64,000 bases of DNA. Origin: a bacterium. Its GTDB lineage: Bacteria > Patescibacteriota > Minisyncoccia > UBA6257 > JAGOQP01. Within the stretch, counting starts at the first letter, position 1, and each line of letters opens with the position of its first letter. Positions 1,931-50,097 of this stretch are shown here, piece by piece. The stretch is taken from assembly GCA_021814695.1 (NCBI GenBank), contig JAKAHY010000002.1:8920-72919 (forward strand), in the 5' to 3' direction. Under the pieces are notes generated by a model. It did not search any database and was not told where the DNA came from. It saw only the letters and a program-made list of their open reading frames with translations. The translations under genes and the position numbers were made by a program.

Positions 1931-2152
1931 TTAGCCGCGCTTCGCTTTGGAGGATGCCGAGACCTTGTGAGTCCCGGCGACGGCCACGCCGCGGTTGGCG
2001 GTGGCCAGGTCGGCCTGAGTCCTCCGCTTGGCCGCCCGGTTCGCGTGCTTGACGCTGTGACGGTCCTTGGGCGCGGTCTTGCCGCAGCGCCCGTTGGGGT
2101 GGCGGTTGCCGCCACCCGAAACCCGACAGTGACACAGTTCGCACACGGCCAT
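1931..2152 (-). CDS. Small basic Cys-containing protein (73 aa) of unknown function; GC-rich and probably foreign
   Basis: GGGAGG lies 6 nt upstream of the ATG. By hand count, 63 of 73 codons end in G/C, in an AT-rich genome. It has 4 Cys (CxxCxC...C) and is K/R/A/G-rich. It has its own promoter and terminator. The N-terminus MAVCELC only faintly recalls the L28 family. Confidence 0.6.
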   Translation of the reverse strand: MAVCELCHCRVSGGGNRHPNGRCGKTAPKDRHSVKHANRAAKRRTQADLATANRGVAVAGTHKVSASSKAKRG

Positions 2153-2290: not shown

Positions 2291-2530
2291 CTAAACTAAA
2301 TGCTTGTTTCTAAAAGCTATTCCCGAACCACTTTTCAGATATTTTTCAAAGTTGATCGCCTGTTCCTTGTTATGAAAAGTGCAGTGCCAAGCAATAATAA
2401 ATGGCGCTCTACTTGAGCTATATTTGGAACCATAACTATTATGTTCCAATAGTCTTTTCTTAATATCAATTGTGATGCCCGTATAGAAACTCCCATCTTT
2501 TAAACTGCGAAGAATATAGACAAAATACAT
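2291..2530 (-). CDS. GIY-YIG (URI-domain) nuclease family protein, minimal 79-aa form
   Basis: It has MYFVYILRS...GSFYTGITIDIKKRLLEHN (GIY..YIG..R..H-N) and a later E (NKEQA). A TATAAT box (2541-2546) lies 10 nt before the ATG, giving a very short leader. Confidence 0.85.
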   Translation of the reverse strand: MYFVYILRSLKDGSFYTGITIDIKKRLLEHNSYGSKYSSSRAPFIIAWHCTFHNKEQAINFEKYLKSGSGIAFRNKHLV

Positions 2531-2988: not shown

Positions 2989-3426
2989 TTAGGCAATATG
3001 TTTTCTTACTTGGCGCTCGGTTTCCCTTTTTTTAATCGTTTCTCTCTTATCCGTTTTCTTCTTGTGAACGCCCAGTCCTATTTCAAGCTTTATTTTACCG
3101 CGCTTGTTATACAGCTTAAGGGGCACCAGAGTCAAGTTTTTGGATGATGCTTGACCGACAAGAGCGATAATTTCCGACTTTTTTGCCAAAAGTCGGCGCG
3201 ATCGGCGAGGATCGAAATCTTTGGGTGTATTTTTCTCCTGGTAGGGGCCAATTGTTGCGCCAACCAGCCAAAGCTGTCCTCCATAAATTTTAACCAACGA
3301 CCCGACAACACTGGCTTTACCGGAGCGGATAGCTTTAGCCTCATGGCCCAAAAGTTCAATTCCGGCATTTAAAGTGTCGGAAATTTCGTAATCAAAATAG
3401 GCTTTTTTGTTTTGGATTGATTCCAT
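2989..3426 (-). CDS. smpB: SsrA-binding protein SmpB
   Basis: It has NKKAYFDYEI...GIEL.G.E.K and a basic C-terminal tail. Its stop codon directly abuts the tmRNA 5' G. Confidence 0.93.
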   Translation of the reverse strand: MESIQNKKAYFDYEISDTLNAGIELLGHEAKAIRSGKASVVGSLVKIYGGQLWLVGATIGPYQEKNTPKDFDPRRSRRLLAKKSEIIALVGQASSKNLTLVPLKLYNKRGKIKLEIGLGVHKKKTDKRETIKKRETERQVRKHIA

Positions 3427-3469
3427 CTGTTTATTTATGATAGTGCCTTGTGGGATTTTTTTGCAAGCG

Positions 3470-3480
3470 ATGTGATATAA
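3470..3480 (+). promoter_or_regulatory. Extended -10 promoter TGTGATATAAT (copy 1 of 4)
   Basis: TGTGATATAAT sits within a conserved GCAAGCGATGTGATATAATGAAACAAAT block, 18 nt before ATG 3499. No Shine-Dalgarno sequence is present. Confidence 0.65.
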
Positions 3481-3498
3481 TGAAACAAATAAAAAACT

Positions 3499-5643
3499 AT
3501 GAAAAAATCTTCATTAATCGTGGTCATTTTGCTTGTTGTGGCAAGCGTAGGAATGACCGTCATCTTTTCAAATCAAGTGTCGATAAAGGGATTTCTATCG
3601 AGCGTTTATTCTACTGCATCAGGCAGAAATCATATACAGCTGGCAAACGCTCAGTCCTTGGGACAGGGGGTTGTAGTTTTTAAAGCGCAATTTGGCCATT
3701 TGGAAGCAACCGGCCAAGTTGTCTCCGGTATTTCCGGACTAGCGGGGCTGCCGGTGACAAAATTTGTTCCCGACAGAGACCTTTCGGATTCTGAAAAAAA
3801 GCAGGTTGAAGTAAACATCACCGAAGAGAACACCGTTTTCGGATTTATTGTGGCAAAAAACGTTTCATTAGGGCAGGGAATCGGTTTTAACATTCCCCAA
3901 GGAGAAGTTTATAACTACGGTTTTTATGTGAATTCCGACATCCTTCCTCAAGGATGGACATATAACTCTTCTTGCGTAGAGACGGGAGGAAATATTAAAT
4001 TATCTGCCGGCCAACAAAGCGAATGCACGATAGGTTTTTATCTGAAACCAACGCCTGCGCCGGTTACTCCTCCCGCTTCGACGTCCACTCCCGTCTCACC
4101 TCAGGAAGGAGCGTCAGGTACCGTTATTAGTGAAGATTCCGGTTCTGGATCGCTGCAGTTTGTAAAAAATATTTTGGACTTAAGTACGGGGTGGAAAAAC
4201 CCCGGATCGGATAAAATATTGGACGCAAAAATCGTTGAATTATACGGAAAGAAATTTCTTATTGTTTCGACTCAAAACAAACATTTGCTTGTTTACGATG
4301 CTTCAAACCAGTTTTCGCCGGTTCTTTTGAAAGATAATGATTTATCAGGCAGTAACGTGTCGGCGTTTTATCTTGTGGTTTTAGATAATTTCAATTACGT
4401 ATTTGCCTGGGGAGGAAACTCTGCCAACTACGGATCTTTTAAGATTGAACAAGACGGATCTGCGTCTCTGGTAAAAAGTTACAAACCTGACCAATATAGC
4501 GTTACTCAACCGAATTTGGTTTTCGGGTTGTTTAGAGGGTTAGACGGTAAAGCGTATGGATTTGGAGGGAACGGGGGCGATGGATGGCTAACTATTTATG
4601 ACGTGTCCGATCCGGCAAACATCAGCGAAATTGGATCATATCAAGATGGCTTAGTCGGGAATCACTGCGGCAATTATGGTCTGATTGGATTGGACAGGCC
4701 GCTTCAATGGAATACTTCTCAACAAGGGAACAAGCTTTATCTGGTAACTCATGCGGACCAGTGCGTCCAGCGGCTGCATACTTCCGGAGACGCCAGAATT
4801 TATATTTTTGACGTTTCTGATCCAAAAAATCCGCAGCTTTCCCATCAATATGAGCTTTCCGGTTCTTTTAACCACATACCTTCGGACGCGACTAAGGCCG
4901 AACAGACATTTCTTTTTGGCGGGATCGCCGACATTGCCGTTGATTCAAATTCGGGTAAGGTTTTTGATTTTTACAGGACGGTTTTTGATTGGCAGGGGCC
5001 ATCCTGGTCTCAGATAGCAAACATAGTGCATGGTACTTTGTTTAGATACAGAACCGGACTGGTCACTCTTTCACTGCAATCGGACGGTTCTCTAAAAGAA
5101 TTGTCGCGGGCTTTATTGTGCGAACAAAAGGGCCCAATGTATGATGGTGGCGGTCCGCAATATTATCGATGCGGCGACGTGGATGGAAACGACAAAAATA
5201 CCCAAGGCGGATATGATTATTCGGCAAGAAATTCTCAACAAAATTACAACGGAGTTTTTCTCCTCAGTGGGCCGGGAAATAGCGGTCAGGTGGGCTTACT
5301 AAGGAGTGATAATAGTTTTGTTGTCATTCCCGATACCGCCGGAGAGATGACTAAATTTAAGACGGCTATTAAAGATTCATCTTATTATTCGAATATCTAT
5401 AATCCCGCTATCAATGGTGTTGTGACCCAGGTTGACAGTAAAACATTTGCCATCTATCAATTTGATAGTTATTCGTTAAGCGTCGTTAAGGTTTTGTTGT
5501 CGCAATCTCTTGTGGGGGGATCGAAAAATCCCTCTCCTCCAGTGACCGGAGTTGCGCCTTCGGCAAACGTACCACTAACATCACCCGCATTTTCATTTAA
5601 TGCGCTCCTGAACATCTTCAGAAGGATACTTAACAACTACTAA
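3499..5643 (+). CDS. Secreted/surface LVIVD-repeat (beta-propeller-type) protein, paralogue 1
   Basis: It has an N-terminal hydrophobic signal/anchor. LVIVD-like repeats include LTIYDVSDPANISEIG, IYIFDVSDPKNPQLS and LLVYDASNQFSPVL. An S/P/T linker is followed by the C-terminal tail PAFSFNALLNIFRRILNNY. Confidence 0.8.
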   Translation: MKKSSLIVVILLVVASVGMTVIFSNQVSIKGFLSSVYSTASGRNHIQLANAQSLGQGVVVFKAQFGHLEATGQVVSGISGLAGLPVTKFVPDRDLSDSEKKQVEVNITEENTVFGFIVAKNVSLGQGIGFNIPQGEVYNYGFYVNSDILPQGWTYNSSCVETGGNIKLSAGQQSECTIGFYLKPTPAPVTPPASTSTPVSPQEGASGTVISEDSGSGSLQFVKNILDLSTGWKNPGSDKILDAKIVELYGKKFLIVSTQNKHLLVYDASNQFSPVLLKDNDLSGSNVSAFYLVVLDNFNYVFAWGGNSANYGSFKIEQDGSASLVKSYKPDQYSVTQPNLVFGLFRGLDGKAYGFGGNGGDGWLTIYDVSDPANISEIGSYQDGLVGNHCGNYGLIGLDRPLQWNTSQQGNKLYLVTHADQCVQRLHTSGDARIYIFDVSDPKNPQLSHQYELSGSFNHIPSDATKAEQTFLFGGIADIAVDSNSGKVFDFYRTVFDWQGPSWSQIANIVHGTLFRYRTGLVTLSLQSDGSLKELSRALLCEQKGPMYDGGGPQYYRCGDVDGNDKNTQGGYDYSARNSQQNYNGVFLLSGPGNSGQVGLLRSDNSFVVIPDTAGEMTKFKTAIKDSSYYSNIYNPAINGVVTQVDSKTFAIYQFDSYSLSVVKVLLSQSLVGGSKNPSPPVTGVAPSANVPLTSPAFSFNALLNIFRRILNNY

Positions 5644-27587: not shown

Positions 27588-28133
27588 TTATTTAGTAATT
27601 GAATTTAAAATATCATTCACGTCGCTTGTAGTAGATGACGTCGAATCGGATGGATTTGCCGAATTTATCTTTGTTTGCTCCCCTTTAATCACGGACTCGC
27701 TTAAATGAGCGGGGGTGTTGGCAGCTACCTCTTTAAGGGCTGACGCGCTTTCGCTCGCGTCTTGTTCAAAGCGTTGTATATGTGAAAGTTGAACGTCTAT
27801 TGATGCGTTTATCATATCGGCCTCCGCTACAACTCCGCGCTGGTTTAATCCGGGCAAAAATAGGGGAGAAAGCTGGGAGGTGGCCAAATAAATTATTATA
27901 AATAAGCCGACGGTTGCAGTTGCAACGGCTAATCCGCGCCACACATTTTGGAACAAAGAAGTGAATGAAATCGTTCTCAAATCTGCGGTAGCAGCGGCAA
28001 ATGACGGGCTTTCCTGGATAGTGGGTGTAAATGGAGTAGCCAGAATTATATTTTTGGAACGCTCCGAATACGCCTTATCGGGCGTTATGGTTCTGAATTG
28101 TTCCAATATTTTTATAATTTGATTATGCTTCAT
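27588..28133 (-). CDS. Single-pass membrane protein, candidate anti-sigma factor
   Basis: It overlaps the sigma gene by 11 nt and has a central TM segment (GLAVATATVGLFIIIYLA). The anti-sigma role is inferred from position only. Confidence 0.45.
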   Translation of the reverse strand: MKHNQIIKILEQFRTITPDKAYSERSKNIILATPFTPTIQESPSFAAATADLRTISFTSLFQNVWRGLAVATATVGLFIIIYLATSQLSPLFLPGLNQRGVVAEADMINASIDVQLSHIQRFEQDASESASALKEVAANTPAHLSESVIKGEQTKINSANPSDSTSSTTSDVNDILNSITK

Positions 28134-28683
28134 ATTTTTCCAGTTCCTTTTTCAGTTGCCGGAGCGCCCTGAATTGCAGCACGCGTACGGCGCCATGGTT
28201 TTTTCCGGTGATTTTAGCTATTTCTTTGGGAGATAGTCCTTCTACGAACCTCATAAGTATAATTTCCTGATAATCCGATGGTAGTCGCTTGATTGTTTTG
28301 TAAACCGTTTCCACCTCTAATTTATTGGAGAGCATTTCCTCGCTGCTTTTTGTGGTCAGTGACAAAACTTCATCGGGGATATCATCAATGTTGGTTATTT
28401 GTTTTTTTGTCCTATAAAAATCAATGACCTTATTTCTGGCAATTTTATATAACCAACTTGCCATAGGAAGGCCCTGATCCTGAAACATCTCAATGTTCTG
28501 CCAAGCACTTAAAAATACCTGATGGGTGAGGTCCTCAGCTTCCTCACGCTGGCTTACTTTTAGGAATATAAACCGAAATAGTTTCGGTTGATATTTGTCG
28601 TAAAGCAAGCCAAAAGCCGAGGCCTCACCCCGGATAGCGCGCTCTAGTAAGTCTCTTTCGTTGTCTATGCGCTCATCTTTCAT
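28123..28683 (-). CDS. RNA polymerase sigma-70 family factor (ECF-like, regions 2 and 4)
   Basis: Region 2 is FGLLYDKYQPKLFRFI...EDLTHQVFLSAW. Region 4 is LPSDYQEIILMRFVEGLSPKEIAKITGKNHGAVRVLQFRAL. Confidence 0.88.
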   Translation of the reverse strand: MKDERIDNERDLLERAIRGEASAFGLLYDKYQPKLFRFIFLKVSQREEAEDLTHQVFLSAWQNIEMFQDQGLPMASWLYKIARNKVIDFYRTKKQITNIDDIPDEVLSLTTKSSEEMLSNKLEVETVYKTIKRLPSDYQEIILMRFVEGLSPKEIAKITGKNHGAVRVLQFRALRQLKKELEKYEA

Positions 28684-28846
28684 AATAAACGAATAAGAAT
28701 GCCTTGTGTTTCAGTTGTTTTAGCAGGCATTCTCGTAGTTTTAAGCCCCCTTTTCTGGGGGCATACCACATTATGGCATATATCCTTGAGAAAGGGAAGG
28801 AATATTCAAAGGATGGCTACTTTAGTAACCGAACGGAATAGTAGTA

Positions 28847-28875
28847 TTGACTAATATGTTATATTATGTTAATAT
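28847..28875 (+). promoter_or_regulatory. Sigma-70-type promoter of the second GC-rich minigene
   Basis: TTGACT (28847-28852), a 17-nt spacer, then TAATAT (28870-28875). Confidence 0.55.
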
Positions 28876-28897
28876 TATGGCAGAAAGGAGATTGCCC

Positions 28898-29116
28898 ATG
28901 AACAGCACGAATAAGCGGAGGGGTTGGATCGGCGTGATCGGGGCGGCGGGGTTGGCGGTTCTGTTATACGCCAACACTCTCAATGTTGTGGCTCATATGG
29001 CCAGCGGCCGCGGCTCGTTGGGTTTGGGCATCCCGCTCGCCCTCATATTCGGTGGCGGGACCTACTTCTTCGGGGACATCGCGCTCAAGAAGGCGAGGTA
29101 TCTCGCCAGCCACTAG
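28898..29116 (+). CDS. Small two-TM membrane protein (72 aa) of unknown function; GC-rich and probably foreign
   Basis: AAAGGAG lies 7 nt before ATG 28898. By hand count, 59 of 72 codons end in G/C. It has two hydrophobic segments (WIGVIGAAGLAVLLY, LGLGIPLALIFGGGTYFF). I prefer this ATG to the upstream TTG at 28847. Confidence 0.6.
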   Translation: MNSTNKRRGWIGVIGAAGLAVLLYANTLNVVAHMASGRGSLGLGIPLALIFGGGTYFFGDIALKKARYLASH

Positions 29117-29139
29117 CAGTTCTTTGTTTCGTTCGACGT

Positions 29140-29170
29140 GAACGGTTCTACGGAGCCGTTCCTTTTTTTA
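29140..29170 (+). terminator. Rho-independent terminator
   Basis: GAACGG-ttctacggag-CCGTTC followed by CTTTTTTT. Confidence 0.7.
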
Positions 29171-29233
29171 TCCCACACCTTTTATTTGCAAATAAAAGAT
29201 GCGGGATTTTATAAACCCTGGTAATATGAGGCA

Positions 29234-30157
29234 ATGCTTTTTTCGCGAATAACAAAAAAAGATATTTTGATATTTATCGTCGTTTTCCTGGTTTTGGGCG
29301 CTATTTTTGTTTTACATAAGCCCACATCGTTTATCGGAGATAATTATGCCGTTGTGGAAAATTCGAGCATCCCCAAACTTCAGGTGGCTACCTCATTTCC
29401 ATTGGCGGCTGATTGGATAAATTCCGTCGGCAAAGACCGGGTTCAGGTACAGGTTTTTGCATCACCCACGGATGATGGGCTGATTCAGTGGCTAAAAAAG
29501 CCCTCTTCGGATGCTCCACAGGAGACCAAAGTTTTTGTTTCTATGGGAAATAATTTTGACCAATGGGCCCAAGAACTGTCCGGGGGAGATCCCAAAATAA
29601 AAATTGATGTTATGATTTTGAGTAATTTTGCGTCTCCGGTTAAAACATATCCTACTTTATCGGGTTCTTCTAAGAACGCTGAAAATTCCTCACCTTACTA
29701 TTGGCTTTCACTTGAGAATGTCCGGGAGTCAGTTCAGGGCATTGCCCGGGAATTTGGAAAAGTTGATGCTGCCGATAGGGAATATTTTATAAACAATGCA
29801 TATGAATATTCTGTCAGACTCGATTCGCTGCTGCACGAAACTGTGGATGTTTTGGGAAGTATCAGAAATACCGCAGTGGCACTTGATGGCGCCAGATGGG
29901 CTCCTTTTGTAGACAGTTTGCAGTTGCGGGTTGTCGGGTTGTTTGATTCAAACTCCACAGAAGACATCAAGGCTATTCTTAAAAAAAATAAAATCACCAC
30001 AGTTGTGACCGATAGCGATTCGAACGGCCGATTTTTGGAACCGGCATTATCCGGGACGACCGTATCGGTTGCTGTCATAGATCCCTGGGGACTTAATAGC
30101 AATAACTACGTGGATTTTATGCGCTCTAATATTTCGGAACTGATGAAAGCGCTTTAG
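29234..30157 (+). CDS. ZnuA/TroA-like solute-binding-protein homologue lacking the metal-ligand histidines
   Basis: VATSFPLAADWINSVGKDRVQVQV aligns with IATTIFPVFDIARNIVGDKIQVIQV of the SBP at 43054. SPH and DPHYW of that protein are replaced here by SPTDDG and SPYYW. No ABC partner genes are adjacent. Confidence 0.5.
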   Translation: MLFSRITKKDILIFIVVFLVLGAIFVLHKPTSFIGDNYAVVENSSIPKLQVATSFPLAADWINSVGKDRVQVQVFASPTDDGLIQWLKKPSSDAPQETKVFVSMGNNFDQWAQELSGGDPKIKIDVMILSNFASPVKTYPTLSGSSKNAENSSPYYWLSLENVRESVQGIAREFGKVDAADREYFINNAYEYSVRLDSLLHETVDVLGSIRNTAVALDGARWAPFVDSLQLRVVGLFDSNSTEDIKAILKKNKITTVVTDSDSNGRFLEPALSGTTVSVAVIDPWGLNSNNYVDFMRSNISELMKAL

Positions 30158-30227: not shown

Positions 30228-30299
30228 GCGGGTATCGTATAGCGGCTATTATACTTCCTTGCCAAGGAAGAGATACGGGTCCGACTCCCGTTACCCGCT
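30228..30299 (+). tRNA. tRNA-Gly (anticodon GCC)
   Basis: The acceptor stem is GCGGGTA/TACCCGC. The anticodon arm is CTTCC-TTGCCAA-GGAAG. The T arm is ACGGG-TCCGACT-CCCGT. CCA is not encoded. The T loop has C at position 55. Confidence 0.9.
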
Positions 30300-30337
30300 C
30301 AAAAACAAAAATTACCCAAACGGGTAATTTTTGTTTT

Positions 30338-30466
30338 GGGTGTTGACGGGGTAGGATGCGGGGTGGTCGAGGGGCTGCAAGCCCCTCGTGTTGGAAATTA
30401 TTCAAAACCGAGGGTTTTGAAGGAGCGAATATAATGAGCGACGTCCGATTTCCCGTTACCCGCTCA
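30338..30466 (+). repeat. tRNA-3'-end-capped structured repeat ('type A' unit), Gly(GCC) copy
   Basis: It reads GGGGTGGT, P1 CGAGGGGCT-gca-AGCCCCTCG, TGTTGGAAA, P3 TTCAAAACC-gag-GGTTTTGAA, then ...GAGCGACGTCCGATTTCCCGTTACCCGCTCA. The last ~20 nt repeat the tRNA-Gly 3' end. Confidence 0.8.
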
Positions 30467-30502
30467 AAAACAAAAAGCACCACAAGGGTGTTTTTTGTTT
30501 TC

Positions 30503-30653
30503 TGTCCGCCCGGAAGGGAGTCTCACGTCGCTCCGACATTGCGTCGGAGCTCCCAAGACACCCTCGGTTTCTTGACGCTCCTCCGGAGCTTTTTCCTACA
30601 CGGGAGATTAAGCATCTCCCGACCCCTCTCTATTCAATTCCTTGTTGACGAAC
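30503..30653 (-). repeat. Type A unit, Lys copy 2
   Basis: On the minus strand it reads GGAATTGAATAGAGAGGGGT, P1 CGGGAGAT-gctta-ATCTCCCG, TGTAGGAAAAAG, CTCC-gga-GGAG, CAAGAAACC-gag-GGTGTCTTG, GCTCCGAC-gcaat-GTCGGAGC, then GACGTGAGACTCCCTTCCGGGCGGACA. Confidence 0.8.
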
Positions 30654-30689
30654 AAAACAAAAAATATTCACAAAGGATATTTCTTATTT

Positions 30690-30827
30690 TGTCCGCCCGG
30701 AAGGGAATCTCACGTCGCTCCGACCTTGCGTCGGAGCTCCTTAAAACCATTCGGTTTTAATATTTCCTCCACGGAAAACCTTCGGTTTCCCGACCCCATC
30801 CGATTTGATTCCTTTACTGACGAATAT
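30690..30827 (-). repeat. Type A unit, Lys copy 1
   Basis: On the minus strand it reads GGAATCAAATCGGATGGGGT, P1 CGGGAAACC-gaa-GGTTTTCCG, TGGAGGAAA, AAAACC-gaat-GGTTTT, GCTCCGAC-gcaag-GTCGGAGC, then GACGTGAGATTCCCTTCCGGGCGGACA. Confidence 0.8.
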
Positions 30828-30865
30828 AAAACAAAAAGCACCACAAGGGTGTTTTTTGTTTTCTG

Positions 30866-30938
30866 TCCGCCCGGAAGGGATCGAACCTTCGACCGTCTCC
30901 TTAAGAGGGAGCTGCTCTACCAGCTGAGCTACGGGCGG
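30866..30938 (-). tRNA. tRNA-Lys (anticodon CTT)
   Basis: The acceptor stem is CCGCCCG/CGGGCGG (C1:G72). The D arm is GCTC-AGCTGGTA-GAGC. The anticodon loop is CTCTTAA. The T arm is GAAGG-TTCGATC-CCTTC. CCA is not encoded. Confidence 0.88.
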
Positions 30939-43053: not shown

Positions 43054-43938
43054 ATGAGAAAAACATTTTATATTATCTTAATCATACTGCCGGTTGTATT
43101 CGCAGTAGCCATTTATTTATTTTCAAGAAGTTCCACTTCAAAAGAAAGCGGATTAAAAATAGCGACGACTATTTTCCCTGTTTTTGACATCGCAAGAAAT
43201 ATTGTTGGCGATAAAATTCAGGTTATTCAGGTAGTTCCTCCGGGAGCCAGTCCGCATACTTTTGAGGTAACTCCCCAAACGGCATTGGAACTGCAAGGCG
43301 TCAAGGCGATATTTAAAATAGGAAATGGGCTTGATGACTGGATTGACGGCGTTGCCCAAAGCGGCGCCCCAAACGCTCGGATTTTTACGCTCTCGCAAGG
43401 AATAGATTTGAGGAAATTTTCAGACGGCAGTGTTGATCCTCACTACTGGCTGGCGTTAAATAATGCGCAAATAATCGCTCAAAATATTTTTCAGGATGTT
43501 TTGGAAATTGATCCTGCCAATAAAGATTATTATCAATCTAATCTGGATGCTTACTTGAAAAAACTTGATACTGCCGACAAAAAGATATCGGCAACTTTGG
43601 CCGACGTTTCTCAAAAAAACATCGCCACTTTCCATGATGCTTGGTATTATTTTGCCCAAAGATATGGACTTAACGTTATCACCGCTTTTGAGCCGTTTCC
43701 CGGAAAAGAACCCACCCCCCAATATCTTTCGCAATTTATAAACGATATAAAAAAATATAATTTGAAAGTTGTTTTTATAGAACCTCAATTTTCGTCTCAA
43801 AGTTTGGAACAAATCGCTAAAGACCAGGGAGTTAATTTGGTCTTAATCAATCCGGCTGATGGCGGAGCTTCGGGAAATGACGATTTGATAACGCTGCTTG
43901 AAAATGATGCTCAAATAATGGCTTCCGTGCTAAAATAG
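43054..43938 (+). CDS. Zn/Mn-type ABC transporter substrate-binding protein (ZnuA/TroA family)
   Basis: It has a signal anchor and the motifs TTIFPVFDIARNI.GDK, GASPHTFE, DPHYWL and FHDAW.YFA. Confidence 0.88.
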   Translation: MRKTFYIILIILPVVFAVAIYLFSRSSTSKESGLKIATTIFPVFDIARNIVGDKIQVIQVVPPGASPHTFEVTPQTALELQGVKAIFKIGNGLDDWIDGVAQSGAPNARIFTLSQGIDLRKFSDGSVDPHYWLALNNAQIIAQNIFQDVLEIDPANKDYYQSNLDAYLKKLDTADKKISATLADVSQKNIATFHDAWYYFAQRYGLNVITAFEPFPGKEPTPQYLSQFINDIKKYNLKVVFIEPQFSSQSLEQIAKDQGVNLVLINPADGGASGNDDLITLLENDAQIMASVLK

Positions 43939-43942
43939 AAAA

Positions 43943-44653
43943 ATGGATCCGCTACTGGATGTTAAAAATTTATCGGTAAAATTTGGTGATGTTTCCGTCT
44001 TGGAAAACGTCAATTTTTCTTTGAACAAGGGAGATATCTTGACGATTATCGGTCCTAACGGAGCCGGCAAAACGGTATTGGTAAAATCCATACTCGGATT
44101 AATTAGTCACGAGGGAATAGTTGAATTTAACGGCCGACCGGTTTTGTCCCAACTTTCAAAAATAGGTTATGTTCCTCAGCGGCTTGATTTTGACCGGACA
44201 TTTCCGATTACCGCCAAAGAATTACTGGATTTGGTTTCAAAAAAAACAACTTCCGAAGAAACAAAAACCGTTTGTCAGCATCTTGAAATAGAAAATATTC
44301 TTTCAAAAAAGATTGGAACGCTTTCAGGTGGTCAAATGCAAAGAGTTTTAATCGCTCGGGCGGTTATGGGTGGTCCCGAACTTTTGATTATGGATGAGCC
44401 GACGGCGGGAGTGGATATCGGCGGCGTTAAAAATTTTTACGACATAGTCGGTCATTTAAACAAAGAACACGGGATGACGATTATATTAATATCCCATGAA
44501 ATAAATATGGTCTATTCGCTGGCAAGCAAGGTTTTGTGTTTGAATAAACAAATGCTTTGCGTTGGAACTCCCAAGCAGGCGATTACCAGAAAAATTTTGG
44601 ATAAGCTTTATGGAGGAAGTGTCGGCCCCAGGGAACATAATCACTTAAATTAG
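43943..44653 (+). CDS. Zn/Mn-type ABC transporter ATP-binding protein
   Basis: It has the Walker A motif GPNGAGKT, the signature LSGGQMQR and the Walker B motif LLIMDEPT. Confidence 0.92.
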   Translation: MDPLLDVKNLSVKFGDVSVLENVNFSLNKGDILTIIGPNGAGKTVLVKSILGLISHEGIVEFNGRPVLSQLSKIGYVPQRLDFDRTFPITAKELLDLVSKKTTSEETKTVCQHLEIENILSKKIGTLSGGQMQRVLIARAVMGGPELLIMDEPTAGVDIGGVKNFYDIVGHLNKEHGMTIILISHEINMVYSLASKVLCLNKQMLCVGTPKQAITRKILDKLYGGSVGPREHNHLN

Positions 44654-44677
44654 CAAGCAATAATCGATATTCGATAA

Positions 44678-45487
44678 ATGGAAAACATAATCAATCTAAT
44701 TTCATATCCGTTTGTTTTGAGGGCAATATTTGCCGGAATTGTTACTGCGGCACTGCTGGCTTTCTTAGGGGTTTTTGTGGTGTTAAGAAAAATGTCTTTT
44801 TACAGCGACGGTATCGCGCATGCGTCTTTGGCCGGAGTGGCGGCGGGAATTTTGCTTTCCAGCCAGCCGCTTTTGTGGGCAATGATTGTTGGAATTATTT
44901 TTGCGATTTTGGTTTTTTGGCTGGAAAAAAGAACTTCGGTTTCGGTTGATGCGATTATCGGAGTTTTGTTTACCGCTAGTTTGGCCTTGGGTGTGGTTTT
45001 GATGAATTTCAAATCGGGATATCAGCCAGATTTAATCAGTTTTCTTTTTGGAAATATTCTGACGATTCAATATTCGGATATCTGGCTTATTTTAATTATC
45101 GCTTTAATTACCGGAATTTTTATGACAATTAATTACAAAAAATATTTGCTTTTATCGTTAAATAAGGACTTGGCTTATCTTTCGGGAATAAATCTTTCTT
45201 TATATCAATTGTTGTTTTATATCGCCTTATCGGTTTCGGTTATTTTGGGAATAAAAATTGTAGGAGTGGTTTTGGTTAGTGCTTTAGTGATTATTCCCGT
45301 TTCTATCGCGAAACTTTTTTCGGTCTCAGCAAAGTCCTTGGTAGTTTGGAGCATTGTCTTATCGGAAATAATTATGCTTTTAGGCGTAATGCTGTCTTTA
45401 ATATTTAATTTGCCTACCGGAGCGACAATCGTTCTTGTTGGAGCAGTTATATTTTTTGGAGGAGTTTTAATTTTAAAAAAATTATAA
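44678..45487 (+). CDS. Zn/Mn-type ABC transporter permease
   Basis: This 269-aa polytopic protein has the ZnuB/TroC-like layout and is third in the SBP-ATPase-permease order. Confidence 0.88.
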   Translation: MENIINLISYPFVLRAIFAGIVTAALLAFLGVFVVLRKMSFYSDGIAHASLAGVAAGILLSSQPLLWAMIVGIIFAILVFWLEKRTSVSVDAIIGVLFTASLALGVVLMNFKSGYQPDLISFLFGNILTIQYSDIWLILIIALITGIFMTINYKKYLLLSLNKDLAYLSGINLSLYQLLFYIALSVSVILGIKIVGVVLVSALVIIPVSIAKLFSVSAKSLVVWSIVLSEIIMLLGVMLSLIFNLPTGATIVLVGAVIFFGGVLILKKL

Positions 45488-46993: not shown

Positions 46994-47164
46994 AAGACCT
47001 CCTTGTGATAAGTTCTAACGGGTAGTATCTGATATTTTTGGATATGAATCAAGTATTTGGTCCAATTGTTTATCGGGATAATTATTGACATTATTCTTTT
47101 ATAGTGGTATAAAATAATCAGCAGCTTGATTCAAATACGGCTGCGGAAAAGGACGGACATACAC

Positions 47165-47791
47165 ATGTCCGAAGAAGCTATCCGCATCAGCAACACCGCA
47201 GGGATTTTTCTGGTTATTCTTCCATCTTCAGGCGAGACGGAAGTGAAGACGGTATTGGTATTGGGAAAGTCTGAATTGGTAGAGCAGAGCAACGGCACTG
47301 TTTTTTCCAAGCCGCGCATGTGGGGATTGCCCAAGGGAAGGATGAAGTCCGATACGGATGAAGACGTTGTCACAACCGCCCTCCGAGAGTTTCAGGAGGA
47401 AACCGGAATCACCGAGATTTCCAAGGGTATGATCAATTGGGAGTTGTCCGTAACGGAGAAGGAATGTTCACTCCGTCCGGGCTCAGACGAACATCACAAG
47501 ACGTTTTTCCTGGTGGTTATGAAGAAAACGCCCAAGATCGGAATTCCTGTCGATCCCAAGATTGAGAAAGCCCAGATTTTTTCCATCAGCGAACTTCCCA
47601 TCACGGGCGGAACAAAGTTGGCCAAAAGTCATGCTCGGGCCATGAGCGCACTTCTGGAAAAGTGCCGGCCACAGCTTTTGGCAGAAGGCGTCCATCCCAT
47701 GGTTTTGGCTATGTGCGAGGTAGGCCTGTCCCACAAGCCGGGAGAAAATAAACCCGATGACGAAAAGAACAATTTCCGCAATCAGCGGTAA
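47165..47791 (+). CDS. NUDIX hydrolase
   Basis: The Nudix box is GLPKGRMKSDTDEDVVTTALREFQEETGI. I prefer ATG 47165 to TTG 47126 as the start. Confidence 0.85.
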   Translation: MSEEAIRISNTAGIFLVILPSSGETEVKTVLVLGKSELVEQSNGTVFSKPRMWGLPKGRMKSDTDEDVVTTALREFQEETGITEISKGMINWELSVTEKECSLRPGSDEHHKTFFLVVMKKTPKIGIPVDPKIEKAQIFSISELPITGGTKLAKSHARAMSALLEKCRPQLLAEGVHPMVLAMCEVGLSHKPGENKPDDEKNNFRNQR

Positions 47792-47818
47792 CTCCGAGCA
47801 TGTCTCGGAGATTTTTTT
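47792..47818 (+). terminator. Rho-independent terminator
   Basis: CTCCGAG-catgt-CTCGGAG followed by ATTTTTTT. Confidence 0.8.
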
Positions 47819-47837
47819 AATCAAAAAATAATATTTG

Positions 47838-47960
47838 AAAATATCCCGACAAGTGAGGGGATTTTGTATAGTCCTTCTTCGCATAAAGCTTCGAAGGACA
47901 CTTTTCGTCTGGCTTGCACTTCGTAGCTCGCCAGGGCGAAGAAGTGAGCGGGTAAGGGGA
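47838..47960 (-). repeat. 123-nt direct repeat, copy 1 (tRNA-Gly 3' end + type B motif)
   Basis: By eye it is identical to 48066-48188, at an offset of 228 nt. On the minus strand it reads CCCCTTACCCGCTCA, then CTTCTTCGCCCTGGCGAGCTACGAAGTGCAAGC...GTCCTTCGAAGCTTTATGCGAAGAAGGAC...ATCCCCTCACTTGTCGGGAT. Confidence 0.85.
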
Positions 47961-48062
47961 AGTCTTACGCTCACCCCCGACCCCCGCTTAAGAAACCTTC
48001 GGGTTTCTTACGTCCCTATTTTCCAACACGGGGGTTCGCATTCGACTCCCAAACTCACCCAC
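47945..48062 (-). repeat. Type A unit, Gly(UCC) copy (variant arrangement)
   Basis: On the minus strand it reads GGGAGTCG-aatg-CGAACCCCCG, TGTTGGAAAATA, TAAGAAACC-cgaa-GGTTTCTTA, then GGGGGTCGGGGGTGAGCGTAAGACTTCCCCTTACCCGCTCA. Confidence 0.7.
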
Positions 48063-48065
48063 AAA

Positions 48066-48188
48066 AAAATATCCCGACAAGTGAGGGGATTTTGTATAGT
48101 CCTTCTTCGCATAAAGCTTCGAAGGACACTTTTCGTCTGGCTTGCACTTCGTAGCTCGCCAGGGCGAAGAAGTGAGCGGGTAAGGGGA
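48066..48188 (-). repeat. 123-nt direct repeat, copy 2 (overlaps the genuine tRNA-Gly(UCC) 3' end)
   Basis: See copy 1. Its upstream end is the real T-stem and acceptor 3' strand of the tRNA at 48175-48245. Confidence 0.85.
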
Positions 48189-48245
48189 GTCGGACCCCTC
48201 TCATCAGCTTGGAAAGCTGAGGTAATACCGATATACGATACCCGC
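48175..48245 (-). tRNA. tRNA-Gly (anticodon TCC)
   Basis: The acceptor stem is GCGGGTA/TACCCGC. The anticodon arm is TCAGC-TTTCCAA-GCTGA. The T arm is AGGGG-TCCGACT-CCCCT, again with C at position 55. CCA is not encoded. Confidence 0.85.
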
Positions 48246-48307
48246 TTAATGTGAATAAAGGTAACAAATTTTCTTGATTTTTTCAATAACTCAGGTAATC
48301 TGAGCGT

Positions 48308-48922
48308 ATGTTTTTGGACAGGTTCGATAGATTGCCTAAAAAAATTAGAAGGACCGCATGGGTTGTTATCGGATTGGTGGTTTTGATGTTGATTGCATAT
48401 TTGGCGTGGAGTTACTTCGGTTCCCATGTGCCGGGAGATTTCAACGAGGCCAGGATAGCGGCGTCCGTGGAAGCTAAAACGATTGCCGATACCCTGAAAG
48501 ATTCTCCTGAGAATCTTCAAAAAATACAACAACTTCAGGAAAAGTGGAAAGACGATCAGGCGCTGACACTTTTGGTTGCGGAGTTCCAAAAAAACCAGGC
48601 AGCCAGAGATGCATCGGTTAAACTTGCGGGAGAACTGGAAAGAATGGCTCAGGCCATTCCCGACATTCGTCCCAAAAAATCCGCCGAAAATGCTTTAGTT
48701 GCAATAACTACCGAAACTCAGTTGATTTATAAACTGGTCTCGTTTAATGATGATATGAGTCAGTTGCTTAAGTTGATGCAGGATAAAATTACGAATAAAA
48801 TCTACGGGGTGGATAAAGTAAATCAATTAGTGGATGCCATTAATTCCGAAGTCGATTCGATAAATCAGCTCAATAATCAGTTTGAAGATTATCTGAAAAC
48901 GTTTGACGGGTCGTTTAATTAA
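48308..48922 (+). CDS. Membrane-anchored coiled-coil protein, unknown function
   Basis: It has an N-terminal TM segment (WVVIGLVVLMLIAYLAW), and the remainder is helical. Confidence 0.55.
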   Translation: MFLDRFDRLPKKIRRTAWVVIGLVVLMLIAYLAWSYFGSHVPGDFNEARIAASVEAKTIADTLKDSPENLQKIQQLQEKWKDDQALTLLVAEFQKNQAARDASVKLAGELERMAQAIPDIRPKKSAENALVAITTETQLIYKLVSFNDDMSQLLKLMQDKITNKIYGVDKVNQLVDAINSEVDSINQLNNQFEDYLKTFDGSFN

Positions 48923-48941
48923 TTTAGGTTTTTATAAAATT

Positions 48942-49014
48942 GGGCCGTTAGCTTAGTTGGTAGAGCGCCTCGTTTGCAACGAGGAGGTCACCGGTTCGAA
49001 TCCGGTACGGTCCA
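48942..49014 (+). tRNA. tRNA-Ala (anticodon TGC)
   Basis: The acceptor stem is GGGCCGT/ACGGTCC with G3:U70. The anticodon arm is CCTCG-TTTGCAA-CGAGG. The T arm is ACCGG-TTCGAAT-CCGGT. Confidence 0.92.
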
Positions 49015-49052
49015 CATAACAAAAAAATTGCCTAGCGCAATTTTTTTGTTAT

Positions 49053-49184
49053 GATGAATCAGGGTCGGTTTGAATATTTAGGGGTCGGGGTATTTGTAAA
49101 TACCCCGAGTAAGAAAATTTGAGAAACCGTGGGTTTCTCACGAACGAATGAAATGAGTGAGGTGAGATTCCGGTACGGTCCACA
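49053..49184 (+). repeat. Type A unit, Ala(UGC) copy
   Basis: It reads GGTTTGAATATTTAGGGGT, P1 CGGGGTATTT-gta-AAATACCCCG, AGTAAGAAA, TGAGAAACC-gtg-GGTTTCTCA, then ...GAGGTGAGATTCCGGTACGGTCCACA. The last 19 nt repeat the tRNA-Ala 3' end. It ends 4 nt before ATG 49189. Confidence 0.8.
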
Positions 49185-49188
49185 AAAT

Positions 49189-49500
49189 ATGAAAAAATCA
49201 GAATATCTTTTGAGAAGTTTTATAAATGCGGCTGGAGTATTTGTTTATGTAGCATTGATTGCCTGGCTGGGTTTTAACAGCAAAACAATTTTTGGAGAAG
49301 CTCCAAGTTTTATTGCGCCATTGTTTATGCTTCTTTTGTTTGTCGTGTCGGCTTGTATAACGGGCCTATTGGTCTTGGGTAAGCCAATTCTTATGTATTT
49401 GAACAATCAGAGAAGAGAGGCCATTGTTTTATTTTCGGTTACTCTTAGCTGGCTCGTATTGTTTTTGGCGATTATCGCGACTGCTCTTGCCTTAAGATAA
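49189..49500 (+). CDS. Small membrane protein (3 TM), unknown function
   Basis: I prefer the start at MKKSEYLL. The upstream 20 codons of ORF 49129 are a translation of the type A repeat. Confidence 0.6.
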   Translation: MKKSEYLLRSFINAAGVFVYVALIAWLGFNSKTIFGEAPSFIAPLFMLLLFVVSACITGLLVLGKPILMYLNNQRREAIVLFSVTLSWLVLFLAIIATALALR

Positions 49501-49569
49501 ATTAATATAGAAGGCGGTTAATTTGCATTTGGAAAAAAGTGCGCTATTTTATAACCAGAACGCAAAGAG

Positions 49570-50097
49570 GTGAGCGTGCGCGCTCTTTCCCATCCGATAT
49601 CCGTTTTTGTTTGCGGTTTTGAGGAACTGGACGAACAGGAGCAGGCGTTACTGCTTGTAGCGGCGGATGCTATGACTAAGGCTCAAGCGCCGTATTCGCA
49701 TTATCTGGTTGGTGCTGCCGTGTTGGATGGTGACGGCCACATAACTGCCGGATGTAACGTTGAGCGGTGTACGTATACGCAGACGACGCATGCGGAACAG
49801 GCGGCCGTGGATGCGATGGTTGTTCATGGCAAATCCAGAAAAATTCAAGCGGTTGCGGTTGTCGGGGGACCGGATGGCACGATCAATGGACCCATTGAGA
49901 GATTTCCCAAAGGAGAAGTTGTTGCTTCTTTTGATGAAATTCCGGCGCCATCTTGCGGGCATTGCCTTCAGATTATCTGGGAGAATTGCCGGGGCGATAA
50001 CAAGGTTAAGTTGTATTCCTGGGCCGATGGCTGGGTTTACATCACGACCATTGGTGATGCGCTTCCGATGAAGTTCGGGCCCAATGATTTGTTGTAA
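49570..50097 (+). CDS. cdd: Cytidine/deoxycytidine deaminase-family protein
   Basis: The zinc motifs are THAEQAAV and PSCGHCLQ. The start may instead be GTG 49576, which has better spacing from GAGG. Confidence 0.75.
   Translation: MSVRALSHPISVFVCGFEELDEQEQALLLVAADAMTKAQAPYSHYLVGAAVLDGDGHITAGCNVERCTYTQTTHAEQAAVDAMVVHGKSRKIQAVAVVGGPDGTINGPIERFPKGEVVASFDEIPAPSCGHCLQIIWENCRGDNKVKLYSWADGWVYITTIGDALPMKFGPNDLL

Follow-up and report, generated by a model that had tools for sequence, protein, structure and literature searches.

A fast-evolving, GC-rich minigene of a Paceibacteria lineage appears to be an endemic orphan rather than a recent import

The window analyzed here, a stretch of 64,000 nucleotides of contig JAKAHY010000002.1 (positions 8,920 to 72,919, forward strand) with a G+C content of 41.4%, contains on its plus strand a minigene (28898..29116; 72 codons, stop TAG at 29114-29116) that encodes a predicted two-helix membrane protein. 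The G+C content of its open reading frame (ORF) is 61% and reaches 82% at third codon positions (GC3). A first-pass annotation, made from the sequence alone, had regarded the gene as horizontally acquired and as typical of toxins, immunity proteins and holin-like proteins. With moderate confidence, we favor another explanation, namely, that the minigene is an endemic, vertically inherited, and very fast-evolving orphan in which a high GC3 is maintained within the limits of the ORF, and that it did not enter the genome recently from a foreign source. As a protein, the product is an unremarkable orphan; what is unusual is the compositional behavior of the gene, which recurs in three families. 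Atypical composition is routinely read as a sign of recent horizontal transfer, and a gene that is endemic and syntenic and has kept its GC3 through saturating turnover would be a clean counterexample to this practice. It would also point to strong, gene-specific synonymous selection in the tiny genomes of the ultra-small Patescibacteria, otherwise thought to be ruled mainly by drift and AT-biased mutation, and it draws attention to an uncharacterized, fast-evolving family of small membrane proteins beside a module for an envelope-stress sigma factor and a gene for metal uptake.

The compositional deviation of the minigene is large. Its G+C fractions at the three codon positions are 0.52, 0.48, and 0.82, with G or C as the last base of 59 of the 72 codons. 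As a reference, we used 192 equal-sized pieces of 73 codons from 39 confident native genes, which had an average GC3 of 0.397 ± 0.064 and did not exceed 0.562. For the synonymous choices, the log-likelihood was -1.54 for the minigene versus -1.09 ± 0.08 for the native pieces, which is approximately 5 standard deviations lower. The prospect raised in the first-pass annotation that the composition might turn out to lie within the native range has thus not materialized. The evolutionary results reported below are based on six orthologous sequences (that of the window and five others), all derived from metagenome assemblies. All six showed the same trait, with GC3 values between 0.73 and 0.88 next to flanks of 41 to 47% G+C. 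At the fourfold degenerate sites of codons for the same residue, the frequencies were 0.38 for G, 0.40 for C, 0.16 for T, and 0.06 for A, corresponding to 78% G+C. The rare A- or T-ending codons CTA, CGA, GTA, AGT, and CCA were not used once in the 423 codons of the six orthologues, whereas the rare G/C-ending codons CTC, CTG, GGG, GGC, and TTC were abundant. G and C interchanged at the fourfold sites of conserved residues, indicating that no specific codon is preferred. Two codon-based explanations were rejected. A preference for optimal codons is contradicted by the genes for L20, L35, and IF3, with GC3 values of only 0.38 to 0.48, and a preference for rare codons that slow translation is contradicted by the complete avoidance of rare A-ending codons. 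In every orthologue, the G+C content was 24 to 51% in the 100 nucleotides (nt) preceding the promoter and in the 80 nt past the terminator, and the spacer DNA outside the minigene was poorly conserved over much of its extent. The fact that the bias stops at the ends of the ORF speaks against biased gene conversion acting regionally and against a mutational bias of the locus and leaves selection on the translated message.

The locus is no artifact of assembly, a possibility that had been considered in the first-pass annotation. At least 10 contigs from several samples, measuring as much as 245 kb, encode the identical protein, always with the same neighbors, and the exact minigene is present in the metagenome-assembled genome (MAG) GCA_027423275.1. 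The five orthologues (P0002-P0006) were recovered from other assemblies, made independently in ENA, Logan, and additional projects. Within the limits of sequence data, an assembly chimera is thus excluded. The distribution of the family is narrow. A word-indexed search of 5.8 billion protein clusters retrieved the minigene protein itself and one orthologue, and an exhaustive HMMER scan of 1.84 billion representatives added four proteins of 70 to 72 amino acids and one spurious repeat protein. No relative of the minigene was detected by tblastn in 80 loci around the orthologous sigma gene of other Paceibacteria species, nor in phages, plasmids, and viral contigs, and peptide- and DNA-pattern scans of Joint Genome Institute (JGI) metagenomes yielded no true relative among the 110 chance matches checked by tblastn. 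The closest relatives of the neighboring sigma factor belong to Paceibacterota, Wolfebacteria, and Liptonbacteria MAGs, and such relatives, together with the gene content, assign the window to a Patescibacteria/Paceibacterota genome. Judging from these searches, the family is endemic to a single Paceibacteria subclade, whose members share at least 90% identity in the sigma protein. Within this subclade, the minigene occupied the same site in every contig recovered with flanks; no empty site was seen, and more distant relatives have a different gene order at this place. The restriction of the homologues to one subclade, the conserved site, and GC3 values of 73 to 88% in all six sequences despite turnover leave the proposed horizontal acquisition unsupported.

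The minigene has diverged much more than its surroundings. The identity of the ORF DNA ranged from 43 to 88%, compared with approximately 70 to 100% for the flanking sigma and znuA genes in the same genome pairs. Identity at the protein level decreased to 33 to 39%, whereas that of the sigma protein stayed at 90 to 96%; genomes with this degree of sigma identity shared 35 to 76% of their minigene product. The nonsynonymous divergence (dN) of the minigene was 4 to 15 times that of the sigma gene. This is illustrated by loci L006 and L088, which are nearest relatives as judged by the sigma gene, promoter, and terminator, the latter two being almost identical, and which share 96% of their sigma residues but only 58% of their minigene residues. 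Over the first ORF half, L088 differs from the near-identical sequences of the window and L006, whereas in a portion of helix 2 (the GGG-x-Y stretch), the window sequence agrees with L088 against L006. These conflicting affinities of ORF and flanks indicate that alleles have recombined between lineages. The turnover of synonymous sites is similarly extensive. Among the pairs of fourfold sites in which both members are G or C, 41% differed (G versus C) in the minigene, as compared with 2% in the sigma gene and 27% in znuA. Since the limit is 50%, these sites have been replaced repeatedly and yet have remained G or C. We modeled compositional decay with a general reversible (GTR) matrix derived from the fourfold sites of the flanking genes, letting two lineages depart from 100% or 90% G+C. 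A proportion of 41% swaps required approximately 1.5 substitutions per site and lineage, by which point the G+C content would be about 0.58 and not 0.78, whereas holding it at 0.78 permitted only 6 to 12% swaps. Because the model cannot produce both values together, passive amelioration is ruled out under the process that operates in the flanks. Taken together, the active maintenance of G/C-rich, A-poor synonymous sites can be regarded as moderately rather than firmly established.

The expression signals of the minigene are those of a self-contained transcription unit. A sigma-70-type promoter (28847..28875, plus strand) comprises the -35 element TTGACT (28847-28852), a 17-nt spacer, the TG of an extended -10 element (28867-28868), and the -10 element TAATAT (28870-28875); it is near-identical in L006 and L088 and similar in L091. 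Transcription probably starts near 28883. The Shine-Dalgarno sequence AAAGGAG (28884..28890, plus strand) precedes the ATG at 28898 by 7 nt (attgccc) and would coincide, or almost coincide, with the 5' end of the mRNA. Its core was kept in all six orthologues, exactly in four of them and with one base changed in L092 and L093. The alternative TTG start at 28847, which gives the 89-amino-acid version in the list of ORFs, falls within the promoter, and every orthologue starts at the counterpart of ATG 28898. An intrinsic terminator (29140..29169, plus strand) consists of a 9-bp stem (29140-29148/29153-29161) with a 4-nt loop, reading GAACGGTTC-tacg-GAGCCGTTC at 29140-29161, and a run of seven T (29163-29169). 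It is present in all orthologues, and in L006 the stem is preserved through a swap between U-G and U-A. An inspection by eye of the region upstream of the minigene revealed no extracytoplasmic function (ECF)-type promoter conserved among the orthologues. Promoter, ribosome-binding site, start codon, the count of G/C-ending codons, and terminator were all found as described in the first-pass annotation, whose view of an autonomous unit with its own promoter and terminator and with strong-looking signals we share. Judging from these consensus-like signals, expression is probably high.

We propose that a force acting on the ORF only would hold third positions rich in G+C, such that any G or C is favored and A nearly banned, with no regard to codon rarity. 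This force would act at the level of mRNA or translation and produce a compact, nuclease-resistant, and well-translated message. Such a message would be built to persist and to be translated: its very short leader is essentially a strong ribosome-binding site, with the Shine-Dalgarno sequence at the predicted 5' end, its body is poor in A and rich in G/C, and a stable hairpin closes it on the 3' side. The composition would accordingly reflect neither that of a donor nor tRNA-optimal codons nor biased gene conversion of the region. Comparable in part is the STAB-SD type of Bacillus, in which a ribosome-binding site at the 5' end acts as mRNA stabilizer. The minigene shares with it the strong Shine-Dalgarno sequence at the extreme 5' end, the short transcript, and the stable terminator hairpin; however, a GC-rich ORF is not part of the STAB-SD mechanism, and the transcript start is a predicted one in the present case. 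If the mRNA-level explanation is true, it would show how Patescibacteria protect or privilege particular short messages.

A number of points weigh against the explanation that we favor. The decay model takes the fourfold sites of sigma and znuA as representative of a neutral process and assumes that the minigene has shared the history of its flanks, which, as the mosaic pattern shows, is not entirely so. A GC-rich reservoir outside the sampled genomes may have reseeded the locus repeatedly. The sample comprises only six orthologues of metagenomic origin, pairwise comparisons among them lack independence, and the synonymous sites are saturated. High expression was read from consensus signals, and in so narrow a clade synteny says little on a functional link to the znuA or sigma module. 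The mRNA shows no conserved structure, and its fold is unremarkable in comparison with shuffled sequences (z = -1.65), indicating that structure as such is not the selected trait. Lastly, the 24-nt 3' untranslated region (UTR) is transcribed yet AT-rich, which suits a force linked to translation better than one purely concerned with RNA stability.

The maintained composition is not confined to a single gene. Near the start of the window, the minus strand carries a further GC-rich minigene, termed island 1 (1931..2152; 73 amino acids, GC3 0.85), with a promoter, GGGAGGTG, and a terminator, and thus with the same layout, as pointed out in the first-pass annotation. Its product (MAVCELCHC...) is very basic and rich in Cys and His, has no match in Pfam or NCBIfam, and, from its sequence, could be nucleic-acid-binding or ribosome-associated. 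Island 1 forms an endemic family of its own (P0009-P0011; GC3 0.77 to 0.85) at a conserved site between smpB/tmRNA (transfer-messenger RNA) and infC-rpmI-rplT. Its fourfold sites contain 80% G+C and 7% A and differ between genomes by 29 to 50%, versus 58 to 68% in the flanking smpB, which suggests constraint on synonymous sites. The first-pass annotation had proposed that codon usage be compared as a test for a common donor of the two genes. Both favor G/C-ending codons and avoid GGA, AAA, AGA, and TTT, but they belong to separate endemic families and share no sequence similarity, so that the likeness in codon usage reads as a shared style and not as evidence for a common donor. The third minigene is present in L009 (876-1205, minus strand) and L008 (1101-1430, minus strand), which represent the closest GTDB relatives, with genomes of 37% G+C, and are the only two orthologues known. 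It encodes an unrelated, multihelix membrane protein of 109 amino acids and has a TTGACA-17-TATAAT promoter, a hairpin in the 5' UTR, a terminator, a GC3 of about 0.7, and fourfold sites with 76% G+C and 4% A. In the approximately 10 kb past each end of the window, we found no further GC-rich minigene.

These three families (the membrane hairpin, the basic Cys/His-rich protein of island 1, and the 109-amino-acid membrane protein of the sister genomes) lead us to a broader and more tentative proposal: a single Paceibacteria lineage might possess at least three unrelated families of tiny autonomous genes whose synonymous sites are actively held at approximately 75 to 85% G+C, some 40 points above the genome, with A nearly excluded. 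If true, synonymous sites would be under strong selection that is specific to these genes and unrelated to tRNA-optimal codons. Such selection might serve to make short mRNAs resistant to A/U-directed endoribonucleases (RNase Y or toxin mRNases) or to allow their selective translation under particular conditions. Two other small genes were noted. A Wolfebacteria genome of 43% G+C (L077) contains an ORF at 3100-3546 (plus strand) for a soluble-looking protein of 148 amino acids with a GC3 of 0.78 and no Pfam match, directly upstream of the orthologous sigma gene. In the window, a stand-alone gene for a 79-amino-acid GIY-YIG nuclease domain (2291-2530, minus strand; Pfam E = 5e-14) is located between the tmRNA gene and island 1.

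The first alternative, which we consider rather unlikely, is an old, moron-like transfer, in which the ancestor of the subclade received a GC-rich gene from a high-GC donor. The gene would have brought or acquired its promoter and terminator and would still be drifting slowly toward the host composition, so that its GC3 is a relic. According to the model of Lawrence and Ochman, atypical composition reflects horizontal transfer followed by amelioration. The minigene conforms to this model in that codon usage and GC3 are far outside the host range, but differs from it by the lack of a donor, syntenic orthologues, a GC3 that remains high despite turnover, and the existence of two further endemic families that behave alike. 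The loci L008 to L010, whose sigma proteins are 69 to 71% identical, are without the minigene at the corresponding place, which agrees with an arrival in the ancestor of the subclade. An ancestor with a GC3 of approximately 95 to 100% and a star-like loss of 12 to 27% of the G or C (strong, S) sites per lineage fits the distribution of alignment columns; a stationary binomial (6, 0.8), however, fits it equally well. Naive parsimony found 24 singleton A or T (weak, W) bases among S columns, corresponding to 24 apparent S-to-W changes, and no W-to-S change. We set this polarization aside because outgroups saturated at 80% S bias the count. No collection searched contained a homologue that might represent the donor. 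In addition, G-to-C turnover near saturation (the above 41%) at a G+C content of 0.78 cannot be produced by the flank-derived model, and island 1 holds 80% G+C at its fourfold sites while those of smpB differ by 58 to 68%. There are no mobility genes adjacent to the minigene, and its neighbors are housekeeping genes.

In terms of architecture, the closest known element is the phage moron, an autonomous cassette of promoter, ORF, and terminator with deviant GC content (Cumby et al. 2012, PMC3594210). Both consist of one small ORF that is served by a sigma-70-type promoter and an intrinsic terminator of its own and that departs sharply from its neighbors in G+C content, and this match speaks for the old transfer. 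The context that defines a moron is nevertheless lacking as judged from the sequences: the minigene is chromosomal, among housekeeping genes and not in a prophage, it has no phage or plasmid relatives, it resides at the same site in all subclade contigs with flanks, and its deviant composition appears maintained and not decaying. It is thus neither in a phage nor visibly transferred.

The second alternative concerns function and requires a closer look at the product. That the minigene is a true coding gene follows from the pattern of substitutions. Differences between orthologues decreased from the third over the first to the second codon position in most pairs (24/16/8 for the window versus L006), the sole internal indel, in L093, is in frame, and the ratio of dN to synonymous divergence (dS), calculated according to Nei and Gojobori, was below 1 in every pair, ranging from 0.13 to 0.62; dS and dN/dS are rough values, as synonymous sites are saturated and the 15 pairwise comparisons are not independent. 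We rejected a structured noncoding RNA: Rfam contained no match to the minigene at the gathering score or with a meaningful E-value, the above z value of -1.65 is unremarkable, and the consensus fold of the six orthologues (RNAalifold) had an unfavorable covariation term of +1.56, whereas the substitutions are codon-periodic. The protein has hydrophobic segments at approximately residues 9 to 32 and 39 to 63, and AlphaFold2, run on the six-sequence alignment, predicted a helical hairpin with helices at residues 3 to 35 and 41 to 71 (mean predicted local distance difference test [pLDDT] score of 83.5). Hydropathy and model thus agree with the small hairpin membrane protein of the first-pass annotation, and we consider the product a predicted helical-hairpin integral membrane protein. 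Its N terminus (KRR) and C-terminal tail are basic, which, by the positive-inside rule, suggests that both termini are located inside. W10, G12, V13, G15, G18, G39, F51, F58, G59, and K65 are invariant in the six orthologues; small and aromatic residues like these mediate the packing of helices. Helix 1 bears an invariant W-x-G-V-x-G-x-x-G face, helix 2 is rich in glycine and phenylalanine, and the connecting loop is short and usually contains a His. The faces of small residues suggest packing of the protein with itself or with a partner membrane protein.

Pfam, NCBIfam, PHROGs, PADLOC, and PDB sequences contained no credible match to this protein, and a Foldseek search of the PDB yielded nothing beyond generic helical hairpins (E ≥ 2). 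Small bacterial membrane proteins such as KdpF, AcrZ, MgrB, and MntS are accessory or regulatory subunits. The minigene protein resembles this class in its small size, its hydrophobicity, and helix faces suited to packing, and its gene is likewise located near a transport-related (znuA-like) gene and an envelope-signaling ECF sigma operon. It differs in having two helices instead of one and in the absence of a sequence or family relation. Our best guess is an abundant accessory membrane subunit.

The main functional rival to such a role is a gene involved in conflict, encoding a membrane-active toxin, a holin-like pore, or a superinfection-exclusion or bacteriocin-immunity protein that evolves in an arms race. 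A small, hydrophobic two-helix protein with glycine-rich faces, a dN of 4 to 15 times that of sigma, alleles that are mosaic between species, and an autonomous unit with strong-looking expression signals would all suit such a gene, yet we judge it unlikely. With type I toxins and holins, the minigene protein shares the size class, hydrophobic helices with charged ends, and the stand-alone gene, but no conserved antisense RNA gene or lysis cassette is apparent, and there is no match to a holin or defense model. A weak minus-strand promoter-like match from 29234 to 29206 could yield an antisense RNA; it corresponds, however, to only 9 of 12 consensus positions and lies inside the AT-rich znuA promoter. 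Toxins are usually kept under tight repression, in contrast to the strong, unsequestered Shine-Dalgarno sequence and promoter of the minigene, and an unopposed toxin under strong constitutive expression is implausible. The minigene is not accompanied by an endolysin, bacteriocin, antitoxin, or partner ORF, the lack of a partner gene having already been stated in the first-pass annotation. PADLOC gave no match, and PHROGs gave marginal matches for single members (best E = 0.021), none of them a holin, and no family for the window protein. The search of phages, plasmids, and viral contigs produced no relatives, and the dN/dS below 1 in every pair also speaks against a gene of this kind. The idea of a toxin, immunity, or holin-like protein thus found no positive evidence in PHROGs, PADLOC, Foldseek, or the phage, plasmid, and viral searches and is kept as a rival only.

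Very unlikely, in our opinion, is local GC-biased gene conversion at a recombination hotspot, which would raise both divergence and G+C content at unconstrained positions. The disagreement between the ORF tree and the flank tree and the mosaic alleles do indicate recombination at this place, and the equal frequencies of G and C (0.38 and 0.40) are what a strand-symmetric force at the DNA level predicts. However, the poorly conserved spacer within 50 to 150 nt on either side has a native or lower G+C content (0.24 to 0.51) in every orthologue, island 1 shares this composition although its divergence is not elevated, and the asymmetry between A and T at fourfold sites (6% versus 16%) is strand-specific.

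We regard as highly improbable that the minigene is a regulatory leader ORF whose translation governs read-through of the terminator into the znuA-like gene. The order of ORF, terminator, and znuA on the same strand was found in four genomes, including L092 with its different upstream neighbor, and the conserved 3' UTR contains a small hairpin, CGTTC-gacgt-GAACG (29130..29144, plus strand), whose 3' arm coincides with the first bases of the terminator stem and which would compete for the 5' arm of the terminator. According to RNAalifold, columns 304-308 pair with 314-318, and each pair is present in five or six of the six orthologues; the hairpin is absent in L092 and kept in five of six. From its sequence, it could be a weak alternative structure. 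With 5 bp it is nevertheless shorter than the 9-bp terminator, and the ORF has 72 codons, encodes a protein with a conserved fold pattern, and contains no run of regulatory codons. Furthermore, znuA has an apparent promoter of its own and a putative palindromic operator. A target of a diversity-generating retroelement was also rejected, because the 64-kb window contains no second copy of the ORF (best match 12 nt); this negative result does not include a specific search for reverse-transcriptase genes.

The conserved left-hand neighbor of the minigene is a divergent ECF-type sigma factor gene (28123..28683, minus strand; Pfam Sigma70_r2 and r4), the first gene of an operon that continues with genes for a putative anti-sigma protein of 181 amino acids and a protein of 313 amino acids. 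The conserved right-hand neighbor is the gene for a znuA-like solute-binding protein (29234..30157, plus strand; Pfam ZnuA, E = 1.1e-23), which has a native composition. Both neighbors were found in the window, L088/L089, and L093, whereas in L006 and L007 only the sigma side was recovered. In L092 (15-436, plus strand), the minigene is without its own promoter and follows a pilin-like gene at a distance of 4 nt, with the downstream terminator, operator, and znuA unchanged; the pilin-like gene has a weak match, below the Pfam cutoff, to the pilin N-terminal methylation motif. The wider neighborhood includes genes for RNase Y, HU, the ECF sigma operon, the znuA-like gene, tRNAs, and the CCA-adding enzyme. 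By eye, the znuA-like gene has a promoter of its own, TTGCAA-N18-TATAAA, whose -35 element is overlapped by a perfect 20-bp palindrome (29179..29198) with the halves CTTTTATTTG and CAAATAAAAG. A related inverted repeat occurs at the same place in L092, and the palindrome is probably the operator of a metal-responsive repressor. Its position suggests that znuA is under its own control and not simply served by read-through from the minigene. The window also contains a complete znuA-znuC-znuB-like operon at 43054-45487, so that the znuA-like gene beside the minigene encodes a second, more divergent, orphan binding protein (Pfam E of 1e-23 versus 1e-67). On the other side, the hairpin GCCCCC-TTTTCT-GGGGGC (28745-28762) is located inside a block at 28723-28782 that is conserved to 82 to 92% between genomes; this block belongs to the 5' portion of the divergent sigma operon, for which it may serve as a regulatory element.

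Two other regions of the window deserve mention. At 30286-30880, between the genes for tRNA-Gly (30228-30300) and tRNA-Lys (30865-30938), there are three decayed direct copies of the 3' ends of these tRNAs together with their terminator hairpins, which resemble the scars left by integration events recurring at tRNA genes. The region at 47126-50097 has a raised G+C content of approximately 50 to 54% and contains a NUDIX gene (47126-47791; GC3 0.60), a cytidine deaminase gene (49570-50097), and tRNA genes; a 123-nt exact direct repeat (47838-47960/48066-48188) overlaps the start of tRNA-Gly(TCC), and the region may be a small integrated island.

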